Source: Escherichia phage KEP4. Taken from it: a stretch of DNA of 64,000 nucleotides. A model generated the notes under the pieces. It did no database searches. It was not told the origin of the DNA and saw nothing but the letters and a program-made list of their open reading frames with translations. Within the stretch, counting starts at the first letter, position 1. Each line of letters starts with the position of its first letter. Position numbers and translations under genes: made by a program. Of this stretch, positions 4,784 to 52,794 are shown piece after piece. Location of the stretch: the sequence record PP047754; one strand, 5' to 3'.

Positions 4784-4794
4784 ATCAACCTCAA

Positions 4795-4822: not shown

Positions 4823-4836
4823 ATGTCAGTTCGCGG

Positions 4837-6420: not shown

Positions 6421-6452
6421 CTTGTAGTTCTCACTGTGGGGTAATGGGGCTA

Positions 6453-29002: not shown

Positions 29003-29023
29003 CGGGGGATTCAAACCCCAATC
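29003..29023 (-). ncRNA. tRNA-like T-arm fragment
   Basis: GGGG-TTTGAAT-CCCC motif in reverse complement followed by an acceptor-like strand; no matching 5-prime half. Confidence 0.2.
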
Positions 29024-29130
29024 TTTAGTTTGTGTTTCTTCAAAGCTATCATATGTTCACTTTGAATACTAGACTCCCCTGGACATCAAAACAGAATCTC
29101 TATTCCATCCTGCAAGACCCGACATAATCC

Positions 29131-29206
29131 TGGCGACGATGGCAGGACTTGAACCTGCGACATACGGTTTAACAGACCGCCGTTCTACCGACTGAACTAC
29201 ATCGTC
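29131..29206 (-). tRNA. tRNA-Asn (anticodon GTT), CCA encoded
   Basis: 76-nt cloverleaf: acceptor GACGATG/CATCGTC, D-arm GTTC-AGTCGGTA-GAAC, anticodon stem GCGGT/ACCGT with loop CTGTTAA, T-arm GCAGG-TTCAAGT-CCTGC, discriminator G plus CCA. Confidence 0.85.
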
Positions 29207-29619
29207 ATTTATTCTTACTTTCGTAAACATTCTTTATTTTGCATGAAGACCCAGGGCAGGATCATAACGATCGTAAGTTTTTGGATGAGACCCGTTCTTG
29301 ATGCTCACCATCCGACCTTCCCAACTAGCGCGAATTCTGTTGGAAATCACCACCCAAATATTCTTCATAATATAGAACCCTTCAACTATGTTTATTCGCT
29401 TCGATCGCCCTTAATTGGGCGTCCGCGTCAGCTTTGGTGTCATGTGTCCCAAGAACTTTAGTCTTGGTGTGGTCAAGGACAACCCACTTATCGCCTCGCT
29501 TTTCAACAAACTCAACAATCTCTTTGTTGTCAGTAGCGAGGCCATCCCACTCAGTAAGAAACTCACCGAACGTTTTCATCATACTCACCAATTGTTTATT
29601 GAACAACTGGTTTATTTAG

Positions 29620-29695
29620 TGGTGACCCTGGCTGGACTTGAACCAGCGACCAATCGATTATGAGTCGACTGCTCTAACCACTGAGCTACGGGGCC
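29620..29695 (-). tRNA. tRNA-Met (anticodon CAT; elongator Met or lysidine-Ile type), CCA encoded
   Basis: 76-nt cloverleaf: acceptor GGCCCCG/CAGGGTC (one mismatch, one GU), D-arm GCTC-AGTGGTTA-GAGC, anticodon stem GTCGA/TCGAT with loop CTCATAA, T-arm GCTGG-TTCAAGT-CCAGC. Confidence 0.8.
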
Positions 29696-36950: not shown

Positions 36951-39900
36951 ATGGCCAACAAACCAACACAGCCTCTTTTCCCTTTGGGTTTAGAAACTTC
37001 TGAGTCTTCGAACATAAAAGGCTTCAACAACTCCGGCACTATTGAGCATTCCCCTGGTGCCGTAATGACATTTCCTGAAGATACTGAAGTTACAGGTCTT
37101 CCATCTTCTGTGCGTTACAATCCTGATAGTGATGAATTTGAAGGTTATTACGAAAACGGTGGTTGGTTGTCTTTGGGTGGCGGCGGAATACGCTGGGAAA
37201 CGCTCCCTTACGCTCCCTCTAGCAATTTGTTAGAAGGTCGCGGCTATCTCATTAATAATACGACAGGGACTTCTACAGTGGTTCTCCCTTCCCCTACGCG
37301 CGTTGGTGATTCAGTTACAATTTGTGATGCCTATGGGAAATTCGCGACGTATCCATTGACTGTATCTCCAGCGGGAAATAACCTGTACGGCTCCACCGAA
37401 GATATGACGATATCCACCGATAACGTGTCGGCGACTTTCACTTGGTCTGGTGCCGAGCAGGGTTGGGTTGTTACATCTGGTGTTGGCCTCGGCCAAGGTC
37501 GTGTGTACAGTCGTGAGATTTTCACTCAAATTTTAGCATCTGAAACAAGTGCTGTCACTCTCAATACTCCACCAACAATCGTGGACGTGTATGCTGACGG
37601 AAAACGTCTTGCGGAATCCAAATATTCACTAGATGGGAATGTAATCACTTTCGACCCTTCTTTACCTGCCAGCACTGAATTGCAGGTAATAGAATATACT
37701 CCGATTCAGTTGGGCACTGGCGGCGGGGGTTCGGGCGCTTCTGCAATCACCTGGATTTACAATGGCGGATCCGCTATTGGTGGCGAAACCGAAATAACGC
37801 TAGATATCGTTGTAGATGATGTTCCGGCTATTGATATAAACGGGTCTCGTCAGTACAAAAATCTTGGATTCACGTTCGACCCATTGACGAGTAAAATCAC
37901 TCTGACGCAAGAACTGGAACCAGAAGATGAAGTTGTTGTGGTTATAAATGGGACACCAAACATTTATAACCAAATCGATCGTTCTTTACAGGAAGTTGCT
38001 CGCGCCTACAATTTTACAAATGCTCAAGTTATTTTGAGCAACGATTATACTTCTGTTCTGGATAATAAAGTCGTTATTTATGATACGACATCCCAACGTT
38101 CTTGGGGGATTCCATCTGGAATCCCAGCAGGTTCTACAGTGGTTTCCGTCAATGGGGATCAACTGAAGTACAAAAATGGATCAACTGAAACCACTGTTAC
38201 ATTGGTGAGTGTACCAGGTAGTGCAGAGAAATTGAAGAACGATCTGGCTTCAAACTCTGGTTCAGGTATGTTGAAAACTTCTAGAGGTGATACCGTAGAA
38301 GAAGAATTGACTTTCATTAATCAGAATATGGTCGTTCAAATTTCAGATTTCGCGAGTCTTAGAACTTTAGTGCCAGCCACAGCGGGTATCCGAGTCAAAT
38401 TGAAAGGTTATTATTCTGGTTCTGAAATCGGTGGCGGAGAATTCATTTCTGTCGCTGGAGATGCTGTTGATGATGCTGGGATGATTGCTCGAGTGTCAAG
38501 CAGCTTCTATTGGAAGAGAATTATCGACAAACACATTACTCCTGGCATGTATGGCATCAAAGGGAATCTTCCAGAAGATCCGGCAGTGAAACTGAACGCT
38601 ATGTTTACGGCTGCGGCTGCGGCTAACGCTTATGTCTTACTGAACGATGTCGACACTCTGGTCTGTAAAAGCCCTGTCGTGATTCCAGCACATTCATTAG
38701 TGTACGGCAACAAACGAACTATACTGAAACGTGATGCATCGTTGTCATATGCTAATGATTTCTTGACAATTATGAATGATTCATATGTCAAGGGGATCTA
38801 TGTTGATGGTAGCCGTTTAGATTCTCAGACTCCTCTAGAAGCAGTTTTGGTGCGTATCGCTGGGAATGTAACTATCCATAAGAGTGAGATCCGAAACAAT
38901 GCTGGCTATGGCGTTGTTGGTAACGCAGTCCCTGGTATTCGTATCACCAAGAACATTTTTTCCAACTTCGCCAAAGGTTGTGTAGCCATGTTTGGCGACG
39001 GAACAGCGACGAGTGATGATCTGCAAATTAATGATAACAGATTCTTTAACCTGGGCGCGGGAACCATTTATGTTGGCGGTTACTCAAACTTCCTTGTCGA
39101 CAAAAACGTCGGAAGAGGCACTTACGTGGGTTCTCCAGGAAACCGTCTGTATGTTGTGACCAATACTAACGGGACTATCACCCAAAGCGCTGGGCCAGAT
39201 TTTGGGCCATTGAAAACGGGTATGTTCTTTGTATTGCCTGGTGGTTCTGAACATATGATAACGGCGGTCAACAGCCTTACCAGTGTGACAGTAACCCCAC
39301 CACCGCCGTCGAACGCCACAGTTCGTGCAATCGCAGGGACAGGGGATCTTCTGGGCATCCAATCATGCTCCTACGGCACCATCAGCCGTAACAACCTGAC
39401 CGATTGCGTGACTTACGGAACTGGTGGAGGCACGATGGAGGGGAGCACTCTGGGTTGCAATTATGTCACTTGGGAAGACAACTTCATCCGCAACACAGGT
39501 AAGAACGGAATCAACGTCGGGCAATCAGGCGCTGGGGTTGCCACGTGTTCTATCCTGAGGAACACTCTGATACAGGTTGGTAACGGCGGTCAGGGTGTTG
39601 GCCCAGCGTATCTTCTGCCTTGGTTCGATACGCTAGGTATCGCTCTGTATCAGGGAAACCCAGGTTATATGGCGAATATGGACGTCAGTGATAACAACGT
39701 CTCTACATGGTCTGGCGATCTGAATGACGGCGCTGCTTGGTTTGGTATGAGCGGTTGTACGGAAGCCACTGTGACTTGTACAGGCAACAAATCTTCTGGT
39801 TATTCCGACGGCTATGTTCGTGGAGATATATTAGAAGTCACGTTGACAGGTTATGGTACAGGGGCGGCTGCGACTTCATTCGTTAGTGATGGTGAGTCTA

Positions 39901-40124
39901 TACAGATAACCGTTCAAACAGGTACTTCACCAACAGCTTCACCTTATTTTTCAGTGCGGAAGGCGATCCGCACCCGCCATCAACCGATGATAACGGCGCA
40001 GATCGTCACCACAACTGGGAACATGTCTCATTGTTGGGGTATGCAATCTAGTACAGCAGGAAACTGGATGGTGGGTCAGAATACAACTCCTTCGGGGCTT
40101 ACGACATATTACGCAAAAGGGTAA
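36951..40124 (+). CDS. tailspike protein 1 (right-handed parallel beta-helix)
   Basis: 1057-aa ORF; PbH1-type repeats (NNAGYGVVGNAVPGIRITKNIFSNF ... INDNRFFNLGAGTIYVGG); N-terminal module homologous to that of 42756..45536. Confidence 0.7.
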   Translation: MANKPTQPLFPLGLETSESSNIKGFNNSGTIEHSPGAVMTFPEDTEVTGLPSSVRYNPDSDEFEGYYENGGWLSLGGGGIRWETLPYAPSSNLLEGRGYLINNTTGTSTVVLPSPTRVGDSVTICDAYGKFATYPLTVSPAGNNLYGSTEDMTISTDNVSATFTWSGAEQGWVVTSGVGLGQGRVYSREIFTQILASETSAVTLNTPPTIVDVYADGKRLAESKYSLDGNVITFDPSLPASTELQVIEYTPIQLGTGGGGSGASAITWIYNGGSAIGGETEITLDIVVDDVPAIDINGSRQYKNLGFTFDPLTSKITLTQELEPEDEVVVVINGTPNIYNQIDRSLQEVARAYNFTNAQVILSNDYTSVLDNKVVIYDTTSQRSWGIPSGIPAGSTVVSVNGDQLKYKNGSTETTVTLVSVPGSAEKLKNDLASNSGSGMLKTSRGDTVEEELTFINQNMVVQISDFASLRTLVPATAGIRVKLKGYYSGSEIGGGEFISVAGDAVDDAGMIARVSSSFYWKRIIDKHITPGMYGIKGNLPEDPAVKLNAMFTAAAAANAYVLLNDVDTLVCKSPVVIPAHSLVYGNKRTILKRDASLSYANDFLTIMNDSYVKGIYVDGSRLDSQTPLEAVLVRIAGNVTIHKSEIRNNAGYGVVGNAVPGIRITKNIFSNFAKGCVAMFGDGTATSDDLQINDNRFFNLGAGTIYVGGYSNFLVDKNVGRGTYVGSPGNRLYVVTNTNGTITQSAGPDFGPLKTGMFFVLPGGSEHMITAVNSLTSVTVTPPPPSNATVRAIAGTGDLLGIQSCSYGTISRNNLTDCVTYGTGGGTMEGSTLGCNYVTWEDNFIRNTGKNGINVGQSGAGVATCSILRNTLIQVGNGGQGVGPAYLLPWFDTLGIALYQGNPGYMANMDVSDNNVSTWSGDLNDGAAWFGMSGCTEATVTCTGNKSSGYSDGYVRGDILEVTLTGYGTGAAATSFVSDGESIQITVQTGTSPTASPYFSVRKAIRTRHQPMITAQIVTTTGNMSHCWGMQSSTAGNWMVGQNTTPSGLTTYYAKG

Positions 40125-40174
40125 TATTGAATGCCTAAATACCCCATATTGGTCATCCTTTATGGGGTATTATC

Positions 40175-42715
40175 ATGATTTCTCAATTCAATCAACCACG
40201 CGGTTCCACTTCCATAGAAGTTAACAAACAATCTATCGCTCGAAATTTCGGTGTCAAAGAAGACGAAGTCGTTTATTTCACTGTCGGTATTGACCTCAGT
40301 GGATTTAAAGTAATTTATGATGAGTCTACCCAACGGGCTTATTCTCTCCCTTCCGGTATTGTTTCAGGGACAACTGCAATTAGTCTGGATGAAAGAGCTA
40401 TCCTCACTCATTCTTCTGGCTCTGTTGACCTTGGGGAATTAGCAGTAAGCCGCGAAGAATATGTGACTTTACCTGGTTCTTTTAATTTCGGCCATACCAT
40501 TAATGTGAAAAATGAACTTCTTGTTCACGATGATGAAAAATATCGATGGGATGGTTCTTTGCCAAAGGTAGTTGCCGCTGGTTCTACACCCGATAACTCA
40601 GGCGGTGTTGGCACAGGCGCGTGGATACCTGTTGGCATTAATTCTTTGTCTGGCGATGGTGGTTGGTCGCGTATCGGATCAGAATTTGGTAAATCTTTGA
40701 AAGAACATATTCAAAGTCTTCCCAGCTTGTCTGCTGTCAAATATATGACATTTGTTGAATACGCAGCCCTTTTGGCAGGAAACGACACGGTCAATCATGA
40801 CGTTAAAGTTCAGCAAGTTATGGATGAAGCGCATGAATTGAAATGCTCTGTTTATTTTCCAACAGGGCGTTATGTATTTGACACTGCAGTCAACGTTTGG
40901 ACATACGTTCGCGCTGTTTGGGGAGACGGTTCGGCCATTATCACCAGACGTTACGGAAGTCAGTTTAGTTCCCCTGGGGTGATAGATCCGGCGCATGATA
41001 CGCGTAAATTATTCCGAATGATGGGCGGAGCGTTGGGACCGCAGTCTATTCATGGTCTTATTATTGATGGTAATGCGCGTTCATTTACAGTCCCAAAACA
41101 TACTGATTCGGATCAAACTTATCCCAACCAAACTTATTATGGCGATGTTGAACCAGTCGATGTTGGCCCATATGTATTTGGACCGGAAGGAAATACTTCT
41201 GTTCCTGGCGCTTCTTACTATAACCATGATAAGAAAGAATCCGGTCTGACCGTTTTCGATATGGTGTTTAAAGATCAACCTGGTGGTGGTGTCGTAGGTA
41301 ATGGCCAAAACGTCCGTGTGTTTGGAAATCACTTTATGGGTTGGTATGACCATGCTGTGTATATCGCCGGAAGTAACTTTGCCTCGGAAGGAGACGGAAT
41401 TTTGTGTAGTGATATTGTTGTCACTGGTAACGTATTCCGAAATCGTATTAACAATCGAGGCAATGGAGCAGTCAAAGCACGATTTGGTGTTAATCGTTAC
41501 GCAGTTACAGGCAACTCCTTTGATATAGTTGACTATTGCATGGCATTTGAGATGGGTAATGGACCAGCGACTCAACCATTTGGCCAAATTGTTGTGGACG
41601 GCAACGTGTGCACTTCAGATGGTATGTTTATGCAAATCGGGAATGATATTGGGACTGAGTGGTTCTCGACCAATTGGCTCAAATCAATGACTATTACGAA
41701 TAACACAGCACGGTCGTTGGATCGCATTTTCTTGTTAGGGGTTAGCGGATCTTCCAGTTATATTATGGATGGGTTTTCTGTACAAGTGGCCAATAACCGA
41801 TTTTATGCGCCGTCATTTTTGTCCGTGTACACATTCATGACGAATACGGAATGGATGTTGAATAACAATATCGTGGAGATCACAGGAACTGCTATGATCA
41901 CAGGAGTTGATCAATCGAACATCAACAATTCACGGATATATCTTAAAGATAATGTTTTAGGAGTTCTCCGGACTGATGTTCAAGGTTATGCTGCAGTCAG
42001 TAATTTTCAACAAGTTGAAATTTCTAATAATACATTGCGTAATTTGTATTTCCAAATAGGAAGTTATACCACAGATCTGTTTATTAAAGGAAATACTGTT
42101 AACTACACATCTGCATTATCCAGTAAAAACTTGGCGCTCATGTATTCAAGTGCTGGGAATGGTTTGATAACAGCCGATATCAGTGATAATAAGTTTTTCG
42201 GTGGAGTTGGTCGTTGCCAACTTAAATTCAGTAGCAGCGCTTCTCTGGATTGTATTAACAACAAATTCTTTACAACTTCGGCACCGTTTTTGGAATTGCA
42301 TCCGGCTGGTTATACTCCACGTGTCGTTCGTATAAAGGACAATTTAATGCGTGGTGCAGGCGTATTGCTGGCTCCTCTTGCTTCTGGTGTTTCTTTGTCC
42401 GGTGCTGGGAATTATATGGTAATTTCGGGAAACACGTTGATGGCTAATAACCCATCTGCGCCTGAAAATATAACTTTGTATCAGGACACAGGTGCGCAGA
42501 GTTGGGTGGCCCATTATGAAACTATCAGATGTGTTCGAAATGATTTCAAATCTGCGCTGTTGGCGATTAATGCAACAGGGACAGCACAATCTGGTTTGAG
42601 TACTACCAATAAATTCTGGTTCGGGGATAACGCGACGATTAATACCACGGTTGTTTGTACTTATCCTGCTGGCAACAAAGCCAACACCGACATCACCCAG
42701 ACAGTTTCAGTTTAA
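40175..42715 (+). CDS. tailspike protein 2 (parallel beta-helix)
   Basis: 846-aa ORF; N-terminal about 90 aa alignable to 45591..47825; beta-helix repeats (GNHFMGWYDHAVYIAGSNF ... VVTGNVFRNRINNRGNGA). Confidence 0.7.
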   Translation: MISQFNQPRGSTSIEVNKQSIARNFGVKEDEVVYFTVGIDLSGFKVIYDESTQRAYSLPSGIVSGTTAISLDERAILTHSSGSVDLGELAVSREEYVTLPGSFNFGHTINVKNELLVHDDEKYRWDGSLPKVVAAGSTPDNSGGVGTGAWIPVGINSLSGDGGWSRIGSEFGKSLKEHIQSLPSLSAVKYMTFVEYAALLAGNDTVNHDVKVQQVMDEAHELKCSVYFPTGRYVFDTAVNVWTYVRAVWGDGSAIITRRYGSQFSSPGVIDPAHDTRKLFRMMGGALGPQSIHGLIIDGNARSFTVPKHTDSDQTYPNQTYYGDVEPVDVGPYVFGPEGNTSVPGASYYNHDKKESGLTVFDMVFKDQPGGGVVGNGQNVRVFGNHFMGWYDHAVYIAGSNFASEGDGILCSDIVVTGNVFRNRINNRGNGAVKARFGVNRYAVTGNSFDIVDYCMAFEMGNGPATQPFGQIVVDGNVCTSDGMFMQIGNDIGTEWFSTNWLKSMTITNNTARSLDRIFLLGVSGSSSYIMDGFSVQVANNRFYAPSFLSVYTFMTNTEWMLNNNIVEITGTAMITGVDQSNINNSRIYLKDNVLGVLRTDVQGYAAVSNFQQVEISNNTLRNLYFQIGSYTTDLFIKGNTVNYTSALSSKNLALMYSSAGNGLITADISDNKFFGGVGRCQLKFSSSASLDCINNKFFTTSAPFLELHPAGYTPRVVRIKDNLMRGAGVLLAPLASGVSLSGAGNYMVISGNTLMANNPSAPENITLYQDTGAQSWVAHYETIRCVRNDFKSALLAINATGTAQSGLSTTNKFWFGDNATINTTVVCTYPAGNKANTDITQTVSV

Positions 42716-42755
42716 ATTGAATTGAGCCTAAATACCCCATATTGGCAAATCCTTT

Positions 42756-45536
42756 ATGGGGTATTTTCAAATGACCAGAAATGTAGAAGAATTATTCGGC
42801 GGCGTAATCACAGCTCCCCACCAGATTCCTTTCACTTATAAATCAAGTGTCGGTGGAGAAACTTTCTTTTCTCTACCTTTCTATCCTGTCACTGGCGTAG
42901 TCACAATTAACGGCGGCATGCAAGTTCCGTTAGACAACTTCGAGATAGACGGGAATACGTTGAATCTCGGGCGCGCATTGTCCAAAGGCGATGTTGTGTA
43001 TTGCTTATTCGATAAAATTCTTTCACCAGAAGACACTGCCAAAGGCATCCGCATATACAAATTTCAAGCCGTGGGTGGAGAAACTGAATTCACGCCTGAC
43101 TTTACTTCTTATGGTGTACAGTCTCTTTATATCGGTGGCGAATACAAAACTCCTGATATAGAATATTCCTATAACAGCACGACAGGGAAAGTGTCTTTGC
43201 AAACTGCATTGACTGCAGGCGTTTGGGTAGTCGCTGAAATGTCTGTTAAACAACCGAATATCAGTCCGGCGTTTGATCGCAGTATTCAAGAAATTGCCCG
43301 TTCTGCTAATGTGAAAGACTCTGAAGTCATCGTTAGTACGGACACCATATCTTTATTGGATGGGAAGAAAGTTGTTTATGACGTAGCGGCGCAAACCAGT
43401 TATGGCTTACCAACCATTCCTGATGGTTCTGTCATTTCTTCTGTTAGTAATGGGCAACTTACTTATAATCCAGGTAATGTTGTAGTGGATTTGTTACCTT
43501 TAGAAGATTCATTTATTAATGTGATAAACACTCTGGGGCGCAATGATGGTGCCAAGTATATCGGAGAATGCCATTCTGTTGCTGATCTCAGGAATACTGA
43601 ACCCACTATGGATGGACAACGCATTATTCTTAAGCAACACACTGCGGGTACTCTTCTTGGTGGAGGGGTATTCCGTGCGTTAATTGATGGTACAGGAAAG
43701 ACTGATGATAACGGCACTGTGATCAAAACTGTTGGCGGCGCAGCCTGGTTACGTGTTAATGCTGATAGAGTTAACCCATTCATGTTTGGTGCTTTGGGCG
43801 GTTCTAATGATGATACTATTCCAGTACAATCTTGTGTGGACAGTGGTAAGGCCACACAATTAACTGGTGTACATTACGTTAGCAATATCCGGTTAAAATA
43901 TAATACGTCGTCTATTTATGGGTCTGGATTACATTACTCCAGGTTGCATCAGTTGCCTTCTGCTACTGGGAATTGTATTACCATAAAAGATACATGCTCC
44001 CTTATTGTATTAGACTCCTTTGGGGTATATGGCACAGGTGCACAACAAGGCACATCATTTACTGCGGGTACAACAGGTATCTATATAGAAACTCCTTCAG
44101 GTCTCTCAGCCGATTATCCGTTCCACACTACCGCAGACCCAAGACGCGACTTGTGTATTTCTAAGGTCCATATAGCAGGTTTTGATGAATATGGGTTAAA
44201 TATTGATAGTGGTAACTTTAGTGTTACTACAGATTCTCTTTTAGTCAACCACATCAATCAGGTGGGCGTCCGTTGTGCTACTACTGATTGGACTTGGACA
44301 AATATTCAGGTTAATACCTGCGGTAAACAATGTCTGGTTCTTGATGGTTGTGGTAATGGTCGTATTATTGGTGGTAAATTCATTTGGGCTAACTGGCAAC
44401 CTTATGGTACAGTAGGACAGTTCCCAGGCATTACTATTAATAATAGCCAGAATATGGTTATTAATGGTATTGAGGTACAAGATTGTGGCGGGAATGGCAT
44501 TGAGATTAGCGATTCATATTCAATTTCCATGAACGGATTGAACACCAATCGTAACGGCATCAACGCTAACAACACTTTCTACAACATCGTATTTAACAAA
44601 AGTGATGCAGTTATCAACGGATTCGTAGGACTCAATTATGCTGCGAATAGTGGTTCAGGTGCTAACTCTAGTGCAGGCAATTTTCAGTTCCTGTCTAATG
44701 ATTGCAGCGTCACCATTAATGGTGTGGTTGAGACTGGTTATATGGGCATTAACTTTATTGGTGATAACAATATTATCAACCCCACAAATTCCGAACTGAG
44801 CATTAACGGATTGGTTAATTATTCCAAGACTGGTTTGCAAACCATGAACGAGACCCCTACATTTGATGGTGTTAGCACTACACCTGTTTATGTAAGTGTC
44901 CCATCTTCTGTAGGGCAAGTAAATGGTCTGAGACTATCACAAGCCAACAAAGATAAATTACTGTACTCAAGAACAGCAGGTCCAGAAGGTATTACCATGG
45001 CTGCTGTTGTAGTACCTACCATATCTGGAGCTGAAGTATTTAACTTCATGGCCATTGGTTCAGGGTTTAGTGATACATCCAACAGTCTTCATCTTCAATT
45101 AGTTATAGACGCTTCTGGAAAACAAACAATTGCTTTGCTATTGGGGGGCGATGGTACAACCCAAATTTTATCTGGGGATTTACCTAACGACCTTAAACTA
45201 CAAAGTGGTGTGCCATATCATATAGCTATTGGTGCTAAACCTGGATATTTCTGGTGGAGTATTCTTAATATTCAGACGGGTAAGAGAATCAGACGGTCAT
45301 TCCGAGGCGCTTATTTAGCTGTACCATTTAATTCTATATTCGGATTAACTTCTTCATTAACATTCTTCTCGGATAGCAATGCTGGTGGGGATGCCTGTTC
45401 TGGTGTAGGTGCTAAAGTGTATGTTGGTATGTTCTCTTCTGAGAATGATTATGTAGCTTCACGGTACTACAACCTGATTAATCCTGTAGACCCTAATAAG
45501 TTAATTAGTTACCGTATATTGGATTCTTCTATTTAA
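42756..45536 (+). CDS. tailspike protein 3 (parallel beta-helix)
   Basis: 926-aa ORF; shares the FDRSIQEIARSANVKDSEVIVSTD...VVYD... module with tailspike 1; Asn/Gly-rich beta-helix repeats. Confidence 0.7.
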   Translation: MGYFQMTRNVEELFGGVITAPHQIPFTYKSSVGGETFFSLPFYPVTGVVTINGGMQVPLDNFEIDGNTLNLGRALSKGDVVYCLFDKILSPEDTAKGIRIYKFQAVGGETEFTPDFTSYGVQSLYIGGEYKTPDIEYSYNSTTGKVSLQTALTAGVWVVAEMSVKQPNISPAFDRSIQEIARSANVKDSEVIVSTDTISLLDGKKVVYDVAAQTSYGLPTIPDGSVISSVSNGQLTYNPGNVVVDLLPLEDSFINVINTLGRNDGAKYIGECHSVADLRNTEPTMDGQRIILKQHTAGTLLGGGVFRALIDGTGKTDDNGTVIKTVGGAAWLRVNADRVNPFMFGALGGSNDDTIPVQSCVDSGKATQLTGVHYVSNIRLKYNTSSIYGSGLHYSRLHQLPSATGNCITIKDTCSLIVLDSFGVYGTGAQQGTSFTAGTTGIYIETPSGLSADYPFHTTADPRRDLCISKVHIAGFDEYGLNIDSGNFSVTTDSLLVNHINQVGVRCATTDWTWTNIQVNTCGKQCLVLDGCGNGRIIGGKFIWANWQPYGTVGQFPGITINNSQNMVINGIEVQDCGGNGIEISDSYSISMNGLNTNRNGINANNTFYNIVFNKSDAVINGFVGLNYAANSGSGANSSAGNFQFLSNDCSVTINGVVETGYMGINFIGDNNIINPTNSELSINGLVNYSKTGLQTMNETPTFDGVSTTPVYVSVPSSVGQVNGLRLSQANKDKLLYSRTAGPEGITMAAVVVPTISGAEVFNFMAIGSGFSDTSNSLHLQLVIDASGKQTIALLLGGDGTTQILSGDLPNDLKLQSGVPYHIAIGAKPGYFWWSILNIQTGKRIRRSFRGAYLAVPFNSIFGLTSSLTFFSDSNAGGDACSGVGAKVYVGMFSSENDYVASRYYNLINPVDPNKLISYRILDSSI

Positions 45537-45590
45537 AAATATACCCCTCTTCGGAGGGTATTTACTAGAGAAAAACAGGAGATTCTTATT

Positions 45591-47825
45591 ATGAATCCGC
45601 AATTTGCTCAACCAAAAGGTTCTACTTCAAAAGAATCGAATAAAGATAGCATCGCCCGTAAATTTGGGTGCAAAAAGTCGGAAGTCGTTTATGCGAAATC
45701 AGGACAGTCCTTGTCTGGTTATAAGGTTATTTATGACAAGGAAACACAGAGAGCGTATTCCTTGCCTGTAGATATTCCAGCAGGAACCACGGTTATTAGC
45801 CTTAGCGCCAGTGCTCTGCTTGTACACTCTGGGGGTTCTGTAGACCTGGGCGAACTAGCTTCCCAACGCAATGAATATAATGTATTACCTGGTTCTTTTA
45901 CTACTGGTGCAATAGTATCCACAAAGAATGATGTACTTACCCACAATGGTATCCAGTATCGTTGGAATGGTTCATTACCTAAAGTTGTACCTCAGAACTC
46001 TTTACCATCCAGTGATGATAATTGGATTGGCTTGGGTGCTTCTTATCTGAAGGAACAGCTTAACAGTACCAGTGGTGCATCCATGGTAGTACTGGCTAAT
46101 GGCAAAACCATTGAAGAAGAATTTGCCGAAGAAGCTGCATGGCAGAACCAAGAGAATATGGTGAGAACCGTTATTCCTAATGTTTATCACCATATCCGTG
46201 GCGTTCAGCGTCACTCTGGTAAAAACTTAGCATGGTCTGCTCCAGACGTTGCTATTGATAAACTTAACCCTACGGATACCGTCTTCTACCGTATGCCCCA
46301 GATTGTTAAAACTGGTGATGGTACTCTGATGATTTTCTGTAATGAGTTGCATGGTAACAATACAGATATTGGTGCTACTCCAGATCAGCAATGTAATATC
46401 GTTATGAAATACTCCATTGATAATGGGTGGTCTTGGTCGGCTAAGGTAGTGGTAGCTAACTTTGGGGCTACGTATCAGAACGGTGAGATTGCTGCTGTGT
46501 ATAACCCAGCAGATGGTCGGGTATACTGTTACTTTACTTCCTGCAAAGGCCAGTTGGGTTGGGGATACTCACAGCCAGGCAATGACCCTAATACATCATC
46601 CCAGATATATGTTACCTACTGTGATGCGGAAGCTCCTACTATATGGCGTACACCAGCTAACCTTACTGCTACCCTTAAGCCAGCAACGGCAGATTTTATC
46701 TGGACTTCACCAACTAAACCAGTTGTTTTACCGGATGGTAAGATGGCAATGATTGTGTCTACCGTCACTGGTTCACGGGTTGATTCTTTCCTTACCATCA
46801 TGAAGTATGACATTAAGTACAGCATGGACTACGTACTTAGTTCCGAAGAATCTGGTGGGGAAGTCGGACTGAACCTTTTGCCGGATGGTCGTATGGTGAT
46901 GAACTCTCGTGCTTACCACACCACAGACCTTAAAGGGCTTCAGAAATTCTATATCAGTGATCATCAGTTTAAGAACTGGCAGCACTTATCTGATTTAGTT
47001 ACATCGGATAGTAAGGGTGACCTGGTTCCTATTTTTGATGGGGTTAATGGTGTTCTTACTTGGGCGTTTACTTGTGCTAATGGTGTAGGTGATAATTCTA
47101 TTGGTCGTACTAACTACCGAGTATGGATTAGTCGTGACCTAGTTACTTGGGGGTTAGCTCCTACTGGGGATATCAACACAAGTGATTCTGTTGGGTACAT
47201 CGCATCAATGCCTGGTGGTGATGATGGTTATGTAATCTCTACATCTGAATCAGGTGGTTTTGGTGGTATTTGGTTTACTCAATGGAATGCTAAGTATATC
47301 CAGAACAGAAACTACAACCGCTATCACAAAGAGTTGCGAGAATTAGAGTCAGTAGATGAAACAGCAATGCTCGCATCCGGTGCTATTCCTAACTACTCTT
47401 TTTACGTAAACAAAGACTCCAACCTAATTAACTTCAACCGCAACGGTACTCCAGTTAAGATTCAGCAGTTGGGGGTTAGTCAGAATGCTGTTGATAAGTA
47501 CACTACAACTCAGACCCTAGCATCTATTCCTGTAGATGGTGTTGATATTGTATTAGTCACTGGTTCTGGTACTACTCTTACCCTTAGTGGGTTTAGCGGT
47601 GGATATATGGGCCAGCGTGTGACAGTTATCTCTGATTCATCTGGTGGTGGGGTGGTGCTTAAACGTGCTGATACAACATTGCCTACTGTAACGGACAGAT
47701 TCCACTTTAATGTGGCAGGAGCCTTTACTGCTTTGAGGGTAGACTATGCAACTAAGATGATGGCTACTTTAGTTAAGACTCCATCTGGTTGGTTCACGGA
47801 AAGTATTGCTAACGTAACAATCTAA
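45591..47825 (+). CDS. tailspike protein 4 with putative sialidase/BNR-like domain
   Basis: 744-aa ORF; N-terminus homologous to tailspike 2; one canonical Asp-box SIDNGWSW and one degenerate (SRDLVTW). Confidence 0.65.
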   Translation: MNPQFAQPKGSTSKESNKDSIARKFGCKKSEVVYAKSGQSLSGYKVIYDKETQRAYSLPVDIPAGTTVISLSASALLVHSGGSVDLGELASQRNEYNVLPGSFTTGAIVSTKNDVLTHNGIQYRWNGSLPKVVPQNSLPSSDDNWIGLGASYLKEQLNSTSGASMVVLANGKTIEEEFAEEAAWQNQENMVRTVIPNVYHHIRGVQRHSGKNLAWSAPDVAIDKLNPTDTVFYRMPQIVKTGDGTLMIFCNELHGNNTDIGATPDQQCNIVMKYSIDNGWSWSAKVVVANFGATYQNGEIAAVYNPADGRVYCYFTSCKGQLGWGYSQPGNDPNTSSQIYVTYCDAEAPTIWRTPANLTATLKPATADFIWTSPTKPVVLPDGKMAMIVSTVTGSRVDSFLTIMKYDIKYSMDYVLSSEESGGEVGLNLLPDGRMVMNSRAYHTTDLKGLQKFYISDHQFKNWQHLSDLVTSDSKGDLVPIFDGVNGVLTWAFTCANGVGDNSIGRTNYRVWISRDLVTWGLAPTGDINTSDSVGYIASMPGGDDGYVISTSESGGFGGIWFTQWNAKYIQNRNYNRYHKELRELESVDETAMLASGAIPNYSFYVNKDSNLINFNRNGTPVKIQQLGVSQNAVDKYTTTQTLASIPVDGVDIVLVTGSGTTLTLSGFSGGYMGQRVTVISDSSGGGVVLKRADTTLPTVTDRFHFNVAGAFTALRVDYATKMMATLVKTPSGWFTESIANVTI

Positions 47826-47955: not shown

Positions 47956-50900
47956 ATGCAATCTACAAATTTAAACCGTCGCCCGTATTGGGATGACTGG
48001 AATCCTGGGAAACGTTTTTCACGGATTCTTTTTCGTCCGATGCCTATCAAGGTTCAGACTCGCGAACTGAATCAGATGCAGACTATTCTTCAGGATCAAA
48101 TTGAAAAACTGGGCAACCATTTGTTCAAAGATGGTTCTATGGTTATCCCTGGCGGTTTGACGATCACTAACGCCGCAGTCTCTTTGAAATTCACTTTGGC
48201 TGGTGGTACTGAATTCACTGATCTGGAAGGTATTTCTGAACTCTACGTTTTGGGGAAAGACAATAACGCCAAAGCGCGTGTGCTGTCTCTTGAACGTGAT
48301 CTGTCTGCTCCTGATACAATGCTGGCTATCCTTGAGATGACTGAAGCGGGTAATGCTGACGGATTCCATGTTAACGATAATCTGTATTTCCAGACTTACG
48401 ACGTGAATGATAATTTCATTCGTATTGGTTATGGGATCGCGGCTGCTGTGACTGGTTCTATCGTTGCTCGTATGACGAAAGGCGTTTACTTCATTCGTGG
48501 GATGTTCCTAGACGTTGATGACGCGACTCTTATCGTTGATAAAACTTCGAACACGTCTTCCCACCGCGTCGGATTTAAAGTCACTGAAACCATCGTGACT
48601 GAATCTGAAGACGAATCCCTTTATTCAAATGCTCAGGGAACGATTAACTCCAAAGCCCCAGGCGCTCATCGTCTTCGAATAGATCTGGTCTTATCTCGAT
48701 TTGATTATGATGCTGTGGTTGAAGACTTTGTTGAACTGGCCAAAGTTCGTGATGGTAAAATCCAGTCTATGGTGACTCAGTCCACCTATAATATTCTGGA
48801 AGACACGTTGGCCCAACGGACGTATGAAACCAACGGCGATTACAACGTTTCAACGCACCAGATCGACATCCGCGAACACCTGAAAGTCAATAACAATGGT
48901 GGTGTATTCAATGCTGCTGATGGCGGCGACGAAAGTAAATTCGTGTCTGTAATGAAACCAGGTATTTCCTATGTTCGCGGTCGCCGTATCGAAAACGTCG
49001 GGGAAGAGTTGGTGATCGTTGATAAGGCGCGGGATACCGATGTCCTGAACAACACCCCTGTTGCGGTGGCCACAGGCAATTATCTGGTCACTAAGAATTC
49101 TAAAGGTGTGCCAGTGATATCCCGCACCGTTCGATACAAATTACTGAATGCTTCAGGCGTTACCCAGGCTACAGCACTTTGTATATCAGCTGAACGTAAT
49201 TCAACAGAATTTCGTCTGTATATGCGCGACCTGGTCGTTACTGGCGATGCATCCACTATCACCAAAGTGTCTTACGAAGAAAGCGGTATCACCATGTTCT
49301 CTGCTGAACTGGAATCCAATCAGTTTAACCAGAGTTCTATGATAGATCTGATCTTCTCTCTTCCGGTATTCGGTGTCAAGACTTTAGCACCAACTGGCTC
49401 CGTGGATATCAACTACACTGTTCTCAGAACGTATAAAGTGACGTTGGACAACAGCGGCGCGGGTTCTATTTCTGCTCCATTGGGATATAGTTTTTCCCCA
49501 GAATTTTCGTTGTACTCTGCAGCGAAATCTGATGGTTCTGAAGCGCAGTTCGATATCTCTGGTTCTTTGTCTTTGACTGGTTCTCCGGTCGGTTCGGCGT
49601 TGCAGATTTCTCTGGGCAGTGGTAATGCTAACCAGTCAATCAATTTGCTGGCGCTGATGATTCGTACCACGGCCACAATCAAAACGAAGACCATCACTGA
49701 AACAACTGAAACAGTGACGTTCACCTCGCAGACTAGCCACCCTTTGGCGAATCACGATGGTTGGAAATTGGTGTCGGTCAAAAACGATACTGGCGCAGAC
49801 GTGACCTCCAGCTTCGTCCTAGATGGCGGACAGCGTGATGCAGGGTATTACAAGTCTAACTTGTTATCCAGCGCTGGAGCAATCTCAGGGACGTATACAG
49901 TGGTGTATCAATACTTCGCCCACAGTTCCGGTGATTTCTTCTCTGCTGATTCGTATACTTCGATGGATTATAAAGATATCCCGAATTATACATCTTCTAC
50001 ATCAGGCGCGGTGTACGGCCTGGCAGATAGTTTGGATTTCCGTCCGAAAATCACCAACGGAACTTCTGACACAGATATGGTTCGTCCAAACACTGCAGTT
50101 ATTCTGGACACAGAATATTATCTGCCGCGTATTGACGCGATTTATCTGGCAGATAACGGTGTGTTTGGTGTGGCTCGTGGCATCAGTTCGAACAATCTGG
50201 CTTCTCCAGCAATCCCAGCGAACGCCATGCGTTTGTATGAATTGTTGATCCCACCGTATACGCCGAATATTGATGATATCCAAATTCGCACTATTGACAA
50301 TCGTCGTTATACGATGCGCGATATCGGTAAACTGGAAACCCGTATTTCCAATGTTGAATACTATACCTCTCTGTCACAGTTGGAATCTTCAGCGATGACA
50401 CAGCAAGTGTTTGACCCCATCACGGGTAATCCTCGTTTCAAAAATGGTATTGCAGCTGATCCGTTCAAAGACTTCCGGTTGATTGATGACTTGTCTGAAG
50501 ATTGGATGGGTTCTATCGATACCGAAAACGGACGTCTGCGCCCGTTTGTACAACAAAACGTTGTTGACATGACTCCGGTTGGCTGGAACAAAGTGATGGA
50601 TGGGATGGTGGTTTGTAATTACACGCCTGAAATCTCAGTGAACCAAGAATATGCGACGACGACGATCAACGTTAACCCGTATGCAGTATTCAACTGGGAA
50701 GGTTTCTTGAAGATTAACCCGACCACGGACTACTGGTTCGAAAACTATTATGTTGCCCCGCGTATTATTAATGAAACGATCAACACCCGTGGTACTGTAC
50801 AAGAAGGTTCAGTGTACGGAACATGGCGGACTGTTTCTGTTTCTGATCGTGTTTGGGAGCCGCATGGTGCTGGTGGTGTGTGGTGGGGATATCGTTACCG

Positions 50901-52794
50901 CACGACTGTTTCTGCCCGTGATGTGACCACATACACATACACAGACAAAACAACCACGACCATGACTGGTGAACAGATTGTGGAGACGCAAGTTATCCCA
51001 TACATGCGCGAGATCGATATTTCTTTCGACGCATCTGGACTGCGACCTTTCACTCGTATGTATGCGTTCTTCTCTGGTCGTGACGTCAATCTGTATTGCA
51101 AACCGAATGGCGGTAATTTCGGTGACCCAATCACCACTGATGCCAATGGTGCTGTTAAAGGTGTATTCCGCGTTCCACAGAACGATACAATCAAGTTCAA
51201 CACAGGTGACAACGTGTTCCGCTTGACAGATAGCCCTGTTGATAGTAAATCTGCGGATGATACACTGACCAATGCAGAAATTGTTCATAAATCTTTCGGC
51301 AAGAAACAAGGTATTCAAAAGACCTTTGTCAACACTCGTGTCTTGGGTTACACTGCCAGCACTCGCACCGAAACTTCTACTTCTGAAGTTGTGGTCGACC
51401 AATGGCGTGATCCGATTGCCCAATCGTTTATGGTGGCGACTAAGATTGGCGGCGAGTATATCGAAGGCGTGGAAGTATTCTTCTCTACCAAATCTCGCGA
51501 TGTACCGATCACTTTGGAAATTCGCGAGATGGAGAATGGCTTACCTTCTCACACAGTCATTACTCGTAAGACTTTGAACCCATCTGAAGTGACGATCTCT
51601 ACAGACTCTTCCGGCGGTACGAAGTTCACCTTTGATTATCCGGTGTATCTGCAAGCATCGACTGAGTTTGCTATCGTTTTGTTGGCGAATACTCAGGATT
51701 ACAACGCGTATATCGCGGAAATGGGCAAGAAAAACCTTCTGTCCAACGAATATATCGCCAAACAACCGTATACAGGGGTGTTCTTCACTTCTTCAAACGG
51801 TTCAACTTGGTCTCCGAACCAAATGGCTGATATGAAATTCCGCATATATCGTTGCAACTTTGCGGCTGGTCAGAACGTTGTAACATTTGATCCGAAGCTC
51901 GGGCCAAAACAACGTCCTCTGGGTCTGAACACTCTCAACTGTGTGAGCGGGTCTTCTGTTGTGACGGTGTTTGCACCTGGTCATGGTTTGGTTGCTGGGA
52001 ACAATGTTACTCTGTCTGAATTGACAGGTGGTTGTGGGTTCACCCCAGAACAACTCAACAAAACATTTACCGTGACAGACGCAAGCTATACTTCATTCAA
52101 GATTGATGTTGGCGCAGCAGCAGACAGCAACGGTCAGATTGGTGGTGACAACGCATCTTTCTTGGGCAATTATCTGGTTGATATGTTCTATGCCAGTGTC
52201 ACCAATTCAGCTCTGGAAGGTTCAATTCTGAAATTGGAATATCGCTATCGCGATGCTACTTCCAATTCTATGTCTGATTGGGCTGAATTTGAAACTGACA
52301 CTGACGTGGCGTTGCCGACTGAAGGGATCTATCGTCAGGTCGGGGATTTCCAGATCCGAGCCACCATGACGCGCAGTGAAAACAACGTGTACACCGCTCC
52401 AATGATTGATGGTGATGACCTGAGCGTAATCTTCAACTCATACGGCGTGGATCCATTTGAAGATGTCTTCAAATATGTGACAAAAGACATCGGATTTGAT
52501 AACCCATGTTCGACTGTGAAGTTGTTCTTTGGTGCAATGCTCCCATCTCAGTCTTCTATGAAGGTGCAGGTGAAACTTCTTAGAGCAGGTCAGGAGATGG
52601 ATAGTGTGGCTTGGGAAGATGTTACTCCAACGTCGCCTCTGGTCAACGACGGTTCTACATTCTTTGAATATGAATACGACAAGACTGTGGCGAGCAATAA
52701 CCCGTTTGTTGGCCTGAAAGTCCGAGCGCTTGTACGGGGGAACCGCGTTGCTCCTCCATCATTCAAAGACTTCCGTCTTATTGCTCTGGCATAA
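47956..52794 (+). CDS. very large virion structural protein (putative baseplate/tail-fibre-associated)
   Basis: 1612-aa ORF with the CTAAATATC motif 32 nt upstream; Thr/Ser/Gly/Asn-rich like fibrous proteins. Function inferred from position between tailspikes and neck genes. Confidence 0.55.
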   Translation: MQSTNLNRRPYWDDWNPGKRFSRILFRPMPIKVQTRELNQMQTILQDQIEKLGNHLFKDGSMVIPGGLTITNAAVSLKFTLAGGTEFTDLEGISELYVLGKDNNAKARVLSLERDLSAPDTMLAILEMTEAGNADGFHVNDNLYFQTYDVNDNFIRIGYGIAAAVTGSIVARMTKGVYFIRGMFLDVDDATLIVDKTSNTSSHRVGFKVTETIVTESEDESLYSNAQGTINSKAPGAHRLRIDLVLSRFDYDAVVEDFVELAKVRDGKIQSMVTQSTYNILEDTLAQRTYETNGDYNVSTHQIDIREHLKVNNNGGVFNAADGGDESKFVSVMKPGISYVRGRRIENVGEELVIVDKARDTDVLNNTPVAVATGNYLVTKNSKGVPVISRTVRYKLLNASGVTQATALCISAERNSTEFRLYMRDLVVTGDASTITKVSYEESGITMFSAELESNQFNQSSMIDLIFSLPVFGVKTLAPTGSVDINYTVLRTYKVTLDNSGAGSISAPLGYSFSPEFSLYSAAKSDGSEAQFDISGSLSLTGSPVGSALQISLGSGNANQSINLLALMIRTTATIKTKTITETTETVTFTSQTSHPLANHDGWKLVSVKNDTGADVTSSFVLDGGQRDAGYYKSNLLSSAGAISGTYTVVYQYFAHSSGDFFSADSYTSMDYKDIPNYTSSTSGAVYGLADSLDFRPKITNGTSDTDMVRPNTAVILDTEYYLPRIDAIYLADNGVFGVARGISSNNLASPAIPANAMRLYELLIPPYTPNIDDIQIRTIDNRRYTMRDIGKLETRISNVEYYTSLSQLESSAMTQQVFDPITGNPRFKNGIAADPFKDFRLIDDLSEDWMGSIDTENGRLRPFVQQNVVDMTPVGWNKVMDGMVVCNYTPEISVNQEYATTTINVNPYAVFNWEGFLKINPTTDYWFENYYVAPRIINETINTRGTVQEGSVYGTWRTVSVSDRVWEPHGAGGVWWGYRYRTTVSARDVTTYTYTDKTTTTMTGEQIVETQVIPYMREIDISFDASGLRPFTRMYAFFSGRDVNLYCKPNGGNFGDPITTDANGAVKGVFRVPQNDTIKFNTGDNVFRLTDSPVDSKSADDTLTNAEIVHKSFGKKQGIQKTFVNTRVLGYTASTRTETSTSEVVVDQWRDPIAQSFMVATKIGGEYIEGVEVFFSTKSRDVPITLEIREMENGLPSHTVITRKTLNPSEVTISTDSSGGTKFTFDYPVYLQASTEFAIVLLANTQDYNAYIAEMGKKNLLSNEYIAKQPYTGVFFTSSNGSTWSPNQMADMKFRIYRCNFAAGQNVVTFDPKLGPKQRPLGLNTLNCVSGSSVVTVFAPGHGLVAGNNVTLSELTGGCGFTPEQLNKTFTVTDASYTSFKIDVGAAADSNGQIGGDNASFLGNYLVDMFYASVTNSALEGSILKLEYRYRDATSNSMSDWAEFETDTDVALPTEGIYRQVGDFQIRATMTRSENNVYTAPMIDGDDLSVIFNSYGVDPFEDVFKYVTKDIGFDNPCSTVKLFFGAMLPSQSSMKVQVKLLRAGQEMDSVAWEDVTPTSPLVNDGSTFFEYEYDKTVASNNPFVGLKVRALVRGNRVAPPSFKDFRLIALA

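Follow-up and report, generated by a model that had tools for sequence, protein, structure and literature searches.

The body of TSP1, a tailspike of Escherichia phage KEP4, is firmly predicted from sequence profiles and a structural model to be a sialidase-type six-bladed propeller and a divergent member of GH33. The target that such a spike probably binds and cleaves is a sugar of the bacterial surface that contains sialic acid, perhaps the O48 antigen of Salmonella. The sialidase-like nature of this spike subtype, TSP1-20, is already in public annotation, where some records of its orthologues carry the label "putative exo-alpha-sialidase" (GenBank/PGAP), and the basic point is not new. For this reason, the value added here lies in a testable substrate hypothesis, and what is new is circumstantial evidence on the substrate, namely a relative in a strain serotyped 48:i:z, acyltransferase genes as neighbours, and the residues Leu253 and Glu299.

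The TSP1 gene and its spike cluster

The window, that is, the whole 64-kb stretch of KEP4 DNA that was analysed, contains a cluster of tailspike genes in the order TSP4-TSP3-TSP2-TSP1, in which TSP1 is the last gene, between TSP2 and vriC. The open reading frame of TSP1 begins with ATG and encodes 744 amino acids plus a stop codon, and its boundaries were confirmed exactly. The genes concerned are as follows:

36951..40124, plus strand: TSP4; its N-terminal 339 aa resemble the N-terminal domains of CBA120 TSP4, and Pfam Beta_helix matches the body
40175..42715, plus strand: TSP3; its N-terminus resembles the CBA120 TSP3 head, and its body is without a PDB or Pfam match
42756..45536, plus strand: TSP2, essentially identical to CBA120 TSP2 (E. 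coli O157-specific)
45591..47825, plus strand: TSP1 (subtype TSP1-20), the orthologue of ECML-4 gp189 and Sajous1 gp139; the body of this tailspike is a GH33-like sialidase
47956..52794, plus strand: VriC/VrlC-like protein (DUF4815, 1612 aa), downstream, bounding the spike cluster

This set is the four-spike cluster of Kuttervirus (Ackermannviridae), and the gene studied stands in the TSP1 position. It had originally been named tailspike 4, which is correct for the order of the spike genes in the window, but its Kuttervirus name is TSP1, subtype TSP1-20. The same four-gene cluster is found in phage CBA120, and the TSP1-TSP4 complex of that phage has an N-terminal anchor homologous to that of KEP4. 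Over the whole gene, TSP1 shares 99.3% nucleotide identity with ECML-4 gp189 and Sajous1 gp139, which are the same protein in the same position between TSP2 and vriC, and orthologues of TSP1-20 are present in 15 Kuttervirus records. The spike locus as a whole is mosaic: the best record covers only 83%, and the TSP3 and TSP4 partners in KEP4 differ; within the TSP1 gene, only the first 151 nt are common to most other Kutterviruses. The identical Sajous1 gp139 is reported to be part of the virion, with 113 spectra in mass spectrometry of purified virions (PMC10892097). Literature searches (characterised GH33 tailspike, TSP1-20, Kuttervirus with O145) found no receptor assignment for TSP1-20, and O48 strains were not among the hosts tested in the literature found on TSP1-20 phages.

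The protein is divided into an anchor, a neck, a propeller and a C-terminal domain, which are located as follows:

45591..46040, plus strand: anchor module at the N-terminus (aa 1-150); the heads of CBA120 TSP1, TSP3 and TSP4 are its homologues
45861-46013, plus strand: Pfam Tail_spike_N (PF18668, E = 2e-8), aa 91-141, inside the anchor
46041..46214, plus strand: neck or linker, aa 151-208, with low confidence at the start of the model
46215..47288, plus strand: predicted six-bladed beta-propeller, GH33-like catalytic domain, aa 209-566 (profile, AlphaFold2/Foldseek, HMM alignment)
47313..47822, plus strand: C-terminal beta-rich domain, aa 575-744, with weak fold similarity to other tailspike domains

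The anchor module, in which a GTTVISL motif is located, matches the CBA120 TSP1/TSP3 structures 4oj5 (E = 1.4e-46) and 5w6f (E = 4e-48), and its homology across the CBA120 spikes ranges from E = 1e-38 to 1e-48. The C-terminal domain accompanies the propeller in all relatives, and the likeness of its model to domains of other spikes is slight (TM about 0.37); it may serve in trimerisation or in extra binding.

Propeller fold and catalytic residues

When TSP1 alone was compared with the PDB by phmmer, GH33 sialidases were matched at E = 1.3e-9 over aa 232-463; with a profile built from 11 members of the family, the match reached E = 5e-20. The region aa 194-744 was modelled with AlphaFold2 (mean pLDDT 79.7; a monomer built from a shallow alignment of 11 sequences). 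The model gave a propeller, not a beta-helix, and its best 50 Foldseek matches in the PDB were all GH33 sialidases or KDNases, except for one engineered protein entry. The matching was at E = 1e-18, with a probability of 1.00, about 365 aligned columns and an rmsd of about 3 A, and TM values reached 0.75 when normalised on targets consisting of the catalytic domain only. Pfam BNR_2 is matched by 6 of the 11 family members, does not reach E <= 1 on KEP4 TSP1 itself, and is joined by a weak NCBIfam neuraminidase match. The original prediction of a sialidase-type propeller is thus borne out by the profile, by the modelled fold and by the full catalytic set described below.

That prediction was built on two Asp-box motifs, a canonical SIDNGWSW and a degenerate SRDLVTW, both of which were found again, at aa 275-282 and aa 514-520, although they sit in the central propeller (about aa 209-566) and not, as had been stated, in the C-terminal domain, the extreme C-terminal part being aa 575-744. 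Altogether, Asp-box repeats occur at equivalent blade turns, one canonical and three degenerate at homologous positions:

46413..46436, plus strand: Asp-box 1, canonical SIDNGWSW, aa 275-282 (motif scan)
46620..46646, plus strand: Asp-box 2, degenerate CDAEAPTIW, aa 344-352, aligning with SEDDGKTW of the GH33 sialidase 4fj6
46956..46979, plus strand: Asp-box 3, degenerate SDHQFKNW, aa 456-463, near-canonical in the relatives P0011 and P0012
47130..47150, plus strand: Asp-box 4, degenerate SRDLVTW, aa 514-520, aligning with the canonical GH33 SCDEGKSW with a one-residue deletion

The counterpart of Asp-box 3 is SHDMGRTW in P0011, which fits the full pattern, and STDGMLTW in P0012, which is without the fifth-position Gly. 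The pattern S-x-D-x-G-x-[ST]-W appeared in 0.16% of 200,000 composition-preserving shuffles of TSP1, and it has one occurrence across the six frames of the window. A beta-helix spike with Asp-box matches arising by chance would be in keeping with just one motif being canonical, but every natural protein among the best 50 fold matches is a sialidase-type propeller, and this reading, to which we assign practically no likelihood, is ruled out by the profile match, the Foldseek matches and the shuffles taken together.

The other spikes had been described as beta-helices, and for two of them this is supported: the 926-aa TSP2 is essentially identical to CBA120 TSP2 in the PDB (6w4q), and the annotation of its counterpart in Sajous1 reads right-handed parallel beta-helix repeat protein, while the 1057-aa TSP4 matches Pfam Beta_helix. 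The description does not extend to the 846-aa TSP3, whose body had no match in Pfam or the PDB. The spike bodies of CBA120 are beta-helices, whereas the body of KEP4 TSP1 is a predicted propeller. It is reasonable to infer that the glycan target of TSP1 differs from that of the other spikes, as had been suggested.

GH33 enzymes follow a retaining mechanism, with a Tyr nucleophile, its Glu partner, and an Asp as acid/base. The corresponding positions in TSP1, together with two further positions of the active site, are these:

46290..46298, plus strand: R234-M-P, counterpart of the (F)RIP motif, with the first triad Arg (YRMP) (profile/HMM alignment, site table)
46347..46352, plus strand: L253-H254, with L253 at +19 from the first Arg, the NanI Arg285 position (HMM alignment, site table)
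46365..46367, plus strand: D259, candidate acid/base Asp at the canonical +25 from R234 (profile/HMM alignment, site table)
46485..46487, plus strand: E299 in an invariant QNGE, aligning with the Asp of the GH33 GDP motif (HMM alignment, site table)
46860..46862, plus strand: E424 (SGGE), Glu partner of the candidate Tyr nucleophile, 16 residues before R440, as in canonical GH33
46908..46910, plus strand: R440, second triad Arg (profile/HMM alignment, site table)
47106..47108, plus strand: R506, third triad Arg (HMM alignment, site table)
47196..47198, plus strand: Y536 (VGYIAS), candidate nucleophile Tyr (HMM alignment, site table)
47247..47249, plus strand: E553, Glu supporting the first Arg; DDGYVISTSE is in register with the canonical DDGSIGLLYE

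All seven canonical catalytic residues (R234, D259, E424, R440, R506, Y536 and E553) are present, and their spacings of +25, 16, about 66 and 30 are canonical in the alignment to ordinary GH33 proteins. They comprise the Arg triad with its (F/Y)RIP-type motif (R234, R440, R506), as well as the Tyr nucleophile, Glu partner and Asp acid/base (Y536, E424, D259), and the site table shows no change in any of them among the 13 closest family members of full length, down to 33% identity. The assignment of R506, Y536 and E553 was made by HMM alignment to uncharacterised full-length GH33 proteins that an exhaustive search had yielded, by spacing and by the fold match, because the C-terminal half of the propeller alone has no detectable similarity to PDB sialidases (a profile of aa 400-585 gave nothing significant against the PDB, with a best E of 0.23).

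NanI Arg285 and Asp328 are listed among the active-site residues of that sialidase. The family departs from canonical GH33 at both: the conserved Arg at +19 is replaced by Leu or Met, and the Asp of the GDP motif mostly by Glu, TSP1 having Leu253 and Glu299 instead. On our assumptions that the GDP-motif Asp corresponds to NanI Asp328, and that Arg285 and Asp328 contact the O4 of sialic acid, the replacement of these O4 contacts is a feature of specificity and not of catalysis.

TSP1 was compared with the bacterial GH33 exo-alpha-sialidases 4fj6 (P. distasonis BDI_2946), 6mrv (Sialidase26), 8feb (P. gingivalis PG_0352), 7qxo (T. forsythia NanH) and C. perfringens NanI. It resembles them in the six-bladed propeller, Asp-boxes, RIP-type motif, Arg triad, Tyr/Glu pair, Asp acid/base and canonical spacing. 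It differs from them in sequence, with only 15-18% identity, in being fused to the anchor of a phage spike and to a unique domain at the C-terminus where bacterial GH33 enzymes have a CBM, in its Leu at +19 and its Glu in place of the GDP Asp, and in its presumed substrate, a bacterial polysaccharide with internal, substituted sialic acid.

The GH58 phage endosialidases (K1F endoNF, K1E, K1-5 and phi92 gp143) likewise employ a sialidase-type propeller as a tailspike body against a sialic-acid receptor. Their substrate is alpha-2,8-polysialic acid, and they are inverting enzymes that lack the Tyr nucleophile set of GH33, whereas TSP1 keeps that set. No Pfam match to End_N_terminal, End_beta_propel, End_beta_barrel, End_tail_spike or Peptidase_S74 was obtained on TSP1 at E <= 0.1, and endosialidases were absent from the PDB sequence matches (E <= 0.01) and from the best 50 fold matches; on these grounds, a GH58 identity was rejected. 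The relative P0012 lies at the end of the block of structural and lysis genes in a T7/SP6-like phage, a place which we take to be similar to that of the K1-5 endosialidase gene.

Relatives of the spike and its candidate substrates

The close family is small: the 1.84 billion proteins searched contain 27 cluster representatives at E < 1e-30. Hardly anything was gained from a second, word-indexed search for homologues with the alignment, and no relatives were found in the GTDB representative genomes scanned. The relatives stand where the tailspike is encoded, both in podovirus-like prophages and in a T7/SP6-like phage, and in temperate podovirus-like prophages the relative is the only tailspike. 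One of them, truncated by an IS, lies in S. diarizonae LHICA D1, serotyped 48:i:z, and its full-length form is 46% identical to TSP1 over aa 150-744; P0165 is a full-length Salmonella relative. The other lysogens are Enterobacter hormaechei, which accounts for most of the prophage carriers. Queries with the KEP4, Enterobacter and Salmonella genes found no prophage relatives in 5,426 complete E. coli genomes, sialylated serogroups included, and the family was therefore not linked to E. coli O104 or O145.

It is known that O-acetylation shields sialic acids from many sialidases. In four prophage-type loci, an Acyl_transf_3 gene stands directly after the spike gene, and these genes fall into two types that are unrelated to each other, a pattern suggestive of lysogenic conversion in which the receptor can be acetylated. 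A comparable pair is presumably that of gp14 and oac in Shigella phage Sf6, the tailspike and O-antigen acetyltransferase of a temperate phage. The prophage relatives of TSP1 resemble such pairs in being followed directly by the acyltransferase gene, whereas the lytic KEP4 has none beside its spike.

Among Salmonella serogroups, only O48 contains Neu5Ac in its O-antigen, where it is located in the main chain and is substituted at C4. The O4 contacts are replaced in TSP1, and O4 is the substitution site of O48 Neu5Ac. The link to O48 comes from one serotyped strain, in which the relative is truncated and only 46-48% identical to TSP1. We consider it fairly likely that TSP1 is an active retaining glycosidase acting on a nonulosonic acid, with a Neu5Ac O-antigen such as that of Salmonella O48 as the likeliest substrate. 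A more specific proposal, which we hold tentatively and with less than even confidence, is that it is an endo-acting, GH33-type retaining sialidase on internal 4-O-substituted Neu5Ac of the O48 type, in which the loss of the Arg/Asp pair opens the site to the chain.

For substrate, activity, endo-type action and the role of Leu253/Glu299, we infer the following scheme. The anchor (aa 1-150) would dock TSP1 into the branched receptor-binding complex, and the spike would bind a sialic-acid-type (nonulosonic acid) residue in a surface polysaccharide and hydrolyse its ketosidic bond, with Arg234, Arg440 and Arg506 clamping the sugar carboxylate, Tyr536 and Glu424 acting as the nucleophile pair, and Asp259 as the acid/base. 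The substitutions Leu253 and Glu299 may admit a 4-O-substituted sialic acid. Because Neu5Ac lies in the backbone of such O-antigens, a cut at every Neu5Ac would break the polymer down and open the phage's way to the outer membrane, and TSP1 would thereby add a serogroup to the host range beside the other three spikes.

The changed residues at the O4 positions could equally mean that the sugar is not Neu5Ac, and that the same fold and mechanism serve another 2-keto-3-deoxy acid sugar, such as legionaminic, 8-epilegionaminic or pseudaminic acid, KDN or Kdo. Such a substrate agrees with the replacement of both canonical O4-contact positions (Leu/Met253, mostly Glu299), with the predominance of Enterobacter hormaechei among the prophage carriers, with the KDNases among the good structural matches, and with the lack of relatives in E. 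coli genomes of sialylated serogroups. The E. cloacae complex has O-antigens with legionaminic and with pseudaminic acid, and we know of no Neu5Ac O-antigen in Enterobacter hormaechei or in that complex. Nevertheless, we regard a sugar other than Neu5Ac as rather unlikely, since the one serotyped carrier is Salmonella O48, which has a Neu5Ac O-antigen, all the best sequence and fold matches are Neu5Ac sialidases, and replacement of the O4 contacts would also be expected for 4-O-substituted Neu5Ac.

Improbable, in our estimation, is a true exo-sialidase acting on terminal sialic acids only, either at the non-reducing end of LPS or on animal mucus glycans, and serving attachment or mucus penetration with no depolymerisation of the receptor. 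The GenBank/PGAP name exo-alpha-sialidase speaks for it, as do the nearest solved structures, which are exo-sialidases of gut and oral bacteria, and most sialylated O-antigens do end each LPS molecule in a non-reducing-end sialic acid. Yet TSP1 occupies an exchangeable receptor-binding slot in which every characterised module is an O-antigen depolymerase, its relatives, which are paired with acyltransferases, serve temperate podovirus-like prophages as their sole tailspike, and the conserved Arg/Asp pair at the O4-contact positions has been lost. Even less credible is a catalytically dead propeller retained only as a lectin-like adhesin: although three of the four Asp-boxes are degenerate and Pfam BNR_2 misses TSP1 itself, Asp-boxes are structural rather than catalytic elements, and the complete catalytic set has stayed invariant in a family that has diverged to 33% identity.

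Significance for Kuttervirus host range

Kutterviruses such as ECML-4 serve, or have been proposed, as biocontrol agents against E. coli O157 and Salmonella and as means of detecting them. Four spikes, each of them exchangeable, determine the host range of these phages. Cleavage of a sialylated O-antigen by TSP1, if true, would explain an unseen part of this host range, would provide a reagent to type or strip molecular-mimicry O-antigens such as Salmonella O48, and would bring a depolymerase based on GH33 into a repertoire of spikes that are mostly beta-helices. If the endo-acting, O48-type reading is true, the specificity of the enzyme would be distinct from those of both the EC 3.2.1.18 exo-sialidases and the GH58 endo-alpha-2,8-sialidases, TSP1-20 would receive its first receptor assignment, and phages employed for the biocontrol of O157 and Salmonella would reach sialylated serogroups.

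The TSP1 gene and its spike locus

The window phage is a Kuttervirus (Ackermannviridae), in which the gene under study is the last of four tailspike genes.

Spike genes of the window, with phage CBA120 as reference for the four-spike complex
36951-40124: TSP4; its N-terminus matches CBA120 TSP4
40175-42715: TSP3, 846 aa; member of the spike cluster
42756-45536: TSP2, essentially identical to the O157-specific CBA120 TSP2
45591-47825, + strand: TSP1, followed by the gene of a VriC-like protein

The last gene, an uninterrupted frame of 744 codons with an ATG start, had been labelled tailspike 4 in the original prediction; in the nomenclature of the field it is TSP1, subtype TSP1-20 (PMC10892097). 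It is 99.3% identical to counterparts in 15 phage records, including ECML-4, FEC14, 3HA11, FSL SP-029/063, Sajous1, Guerrero, FrontPhageNews and AR2819. Sajous1 gp139 has yielded 113 spectra from CsCl-purified virions (PMC10892097). In about 60 further Kuttervirus records the similarity stops after the first 151 nt of the gene (window 45591-45741, 92–96% identity), so the remainder is a swapped module. The boundary of the swap is set by the end of the shared stretch, a short way upstream of the conserved GTTVISL motif (aa 65-71), a recombination site in the proposal of other authors.

The complete locus (window 36951-47825) has no full match in the phage collection, the best being ECML-4 with 83% coverage. 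Since no record matches the whole and its parts resemble different phages, the spike set is mosaic, combining Vi01-like TSP4 and TSP3, a CBA120-like TSP2 and a TSP1 with a sialidase module. The similarity to Vi01 lies in the TSP4/TSP3 part (query 1-6549, 95.9%). Searches of Pfam and of PDB sequences gave nothing for the TSP3 body past its N-terminal 164-aa anchor. Upstream of the structural region, at 28374-29695 on the minus strand, stands a cluster of three tRNA genes (Ser-GCT, Asn-GTT, Met-CAT).

Domain anatomy and predicted fold

The N-terminal 150 residues of TSP1, which include Pfam Tail_spike_N, are similar to the anchor heads of related spikes, among them CBA120 TSP1, TSP3 and TSP4 (E = 1e-38 to 1e-53); residues 232-463 match sialidases of the retaining family GH33 directly (E = 1.3e-9). 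A profile of 11 family members matches GH33 sialidases in the PDB at E = 5e-20; Pfam BNR_2 is matched by six of the 11, and gives no match in the window protein itself. The close family is small, with 12–13 clusters in a word-indexed search; when 1.84 billion proteins were searched exhaustively with the HMM, 27 representatives fell below 1e-30, and ordinary GH33/BNR proteins trailed behind them in large number. The AlphaFold2 model of residues 194-744 (pLDDT 79.7) has about 22 strands in a propeller arrangement, and its top 50 Foldseek matches in the PDB, with the exception of a single entry for an engineered protein, are GH33 sialidases or KDNases (E = 1e-18; about 365 columns at an rmsd of about 3 Å). 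The last 170 residues are predicted to form a beta-rich domain of their own (pLDDT 85), with weak resemblance to other spike domains, and propeller and C-terminal domain occur together in all relatives.

The Asp-boxes from which a sialidase-type propeller had been proposed are both present, SIDNGWSW at aa 275-282 and SRDLVTW at aa 514-520, in the central domain rather than in the C-terminal domain to which they had been assigned. The canonical pattern occurs once in a six-frame translation of the whole window, and in 0.16% of 200,000 shuffles of the protein. A genuine GH33 Asp-box lines up with SRDLVTW, in which one residue is deleted. Two further degenerate boxes stand at positions expected for a propeller: that at aa 344-352 aligns with an Asp-box of the Parabacteroides distasonis GH33 sialidase 4fj6, and that at aa 456-463 has a near-canonical counterpart in relatives. 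Chance motifs in a beta-helix spike are refuted by family profile and predicted fold, and the propeller claim stands; assignment of TSP1 to the GH33 sialidase fold and family is almost certain. A propeller body is unusual among Kuttervirus TSPs. A GH58 endosialidase, the phage type, was rejected on Pfam, PDB profile search and fold matches, with none among the top 50 Foldseek PDB matches.

Predicted catalytic site and alternative activities

Residues were assigned by aligning the TSP1 family HMM to ordinary GH33 proteins from the exhaustive search.

Catalytic residues of TSP1 from the HMM alignment
R234 (YRMP): RIP arginine
D259: acid/base Asp, 25 residues past R234
E424: 16 residues ahead of R440, as in the canonical "TExxVVEL...MR" block
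R506: third Arg
Y536: "AYS" tyrosine
E553: final Glu; DDGYVISTSE in register with DDGSIGLLYE

These residues, R440 included, make up the retaining GH33 apparatus known from the literature, including that of Clostridium perfringens NanI. All seven show no variation among the tabulated 13 full-length proteins closest to TSP1 in the family, down to 33% identity, which speaks against an inactive adhesin, an unlikely rival; catalytic competence is likely. In a more distant spike-sized subgroup (P0018-P0023 and P0028-P0030), D259, E424, R440, R506 and Y536 are kept, with Tyr or Phe instead of R234, Lys at +19, and Asp, His or Asn instead of E553; these changes could be artefacts of the alignment, or could mean that the carboxylate-binding site has been remodelled.

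Sialic acid is contacted at its O4 hydroxyl by an Arg/Asp pair (NanI Arg285 and Asp328). At the first position, +19 from the first Arg, the TSP1 family has Leu or Met, followed by a His that is conserved; the second, taken to be the Asp of the GDP motif, is mostly Glu within an invariant QNGE. Among the features examined, TSP1 shares with GH33 sialidases all the catalytic and structural ones, and differs from them only in this O4-contact pair, a feature of specificity. Sequence and model together indicate that TSP1 would work like a GH33 sialidase. A genuine exo-sialidase is an improbable rival; "putative exo-alpha-sialidase" is the product name of TSP1 in several GenBank records, as exo-alpha-sialidase is the PGAP name of bacterial relatives. 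Less improbable, though still a minority reading, is action on another acid sugar, such as Leg, Pse, Kdo or KDN. The target is probably a polysaccharide with a nonulosonic or ulosonic acid.

Relatives and candidate substrate

No receptor assignment for TSP1-20 was found in Sorensen et al. (PMC8432352) or in the later papers retrieved. Relatives of TSP1 are tailspikes of temperate podovirus-like prophages in Enterobacter hormaechei; others occur on IMG/VR contigs and in a T7/SP6-like phage, whose structural block closes with the lysis genes and, after them, the spike gene. More distant relatives lie in spike or tail proteins of Aglimvirinae and Gamaleyavirus phages of E. coli, so that sialidase-type modules are distributed over several branched-spike phage lineages. 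In four prophage-type loci, an Acyl_transf_3 gene immediately flanks the sialidase-like spike gene.

Genes in loci of TSP1 relatives
L001 1029-1916: distant relative, E. phage PC3 (Aglimvirinae), ~30% identity over the first half of the propeller
L002 4543-5430: distant relative, E. phage nithesis (Gamaleyavirus), ~30% identity over the same half
L003 11433-12461: Acyl_transf_3, beside the spike gene
L004 12475-13503: Acyl_transf_3, beside the spike gene
L006 12445-13476, - strand: Acyl_transf_3, beside the spike gene
L007 6662-7714, - strand: Acyl_transf_3, beside the spike gene

The acyltransferases, found in both orientations, are of two unrelated types (63% identity within the L003/L004 pair, 17–18% to the others), and therefore their adjacency suggests that spike and receptor-modifying enzyme have repeatedly come together as a functional pair, as in lysogenic conversion. 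O-acetylation shields sialic acids from many sialidases.

The most telling substrate clue is a relative on the chromosome of Salmonella diarizonae LHICA D1 (CP078142.1; L003 8419-11134), serotype 48:i:z (PMC8515881). O48 is the sole Salmonella serogroup with sialic acid in its O-antigen, carrying Neu5Ac in the backbone of each repeat with the next sugar on its C4 (PMC9631793), the same position whose canonical protein contacts the TSP1 family has replaced. Because this copy begins at the equivalent of about aa 292, lacking R234 and D259, with an IS-type transposase gene just upstream, it is a truncated remnant and not a working spike. The full-length form from its 90% cluster is 46% identical to TSP1 over aa 150-744; a published survey, with spike receptor-binding domain subtypes set at ≥30% identity, reports that one serogroup can be common to domains as much as 70% divergent, so the 46% is compatible with the same target, without proving it. 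Endo cutting of a Neu5Ac O-antigen specifically of the O48 type is a tentative proposal, somewhat less probable than its negation.

The N-terminal module would hold TSP1 in the branched TSP complex, and in the host O-antigen the propeller would bind a sialic-acid-type residue, whose ketosidic bond it would hydrolyse with retention through Tyr536. As the acid sugar would be internal to the chain, the O-antigen would be shortened and the baseplate brought to the membrane. Sialidase-fold phage spikes are a kind already known, and public records already name the very protein studied here a putative sialidase; what is added here is a concrete substrate hypothesis for TSP1, open to testing.
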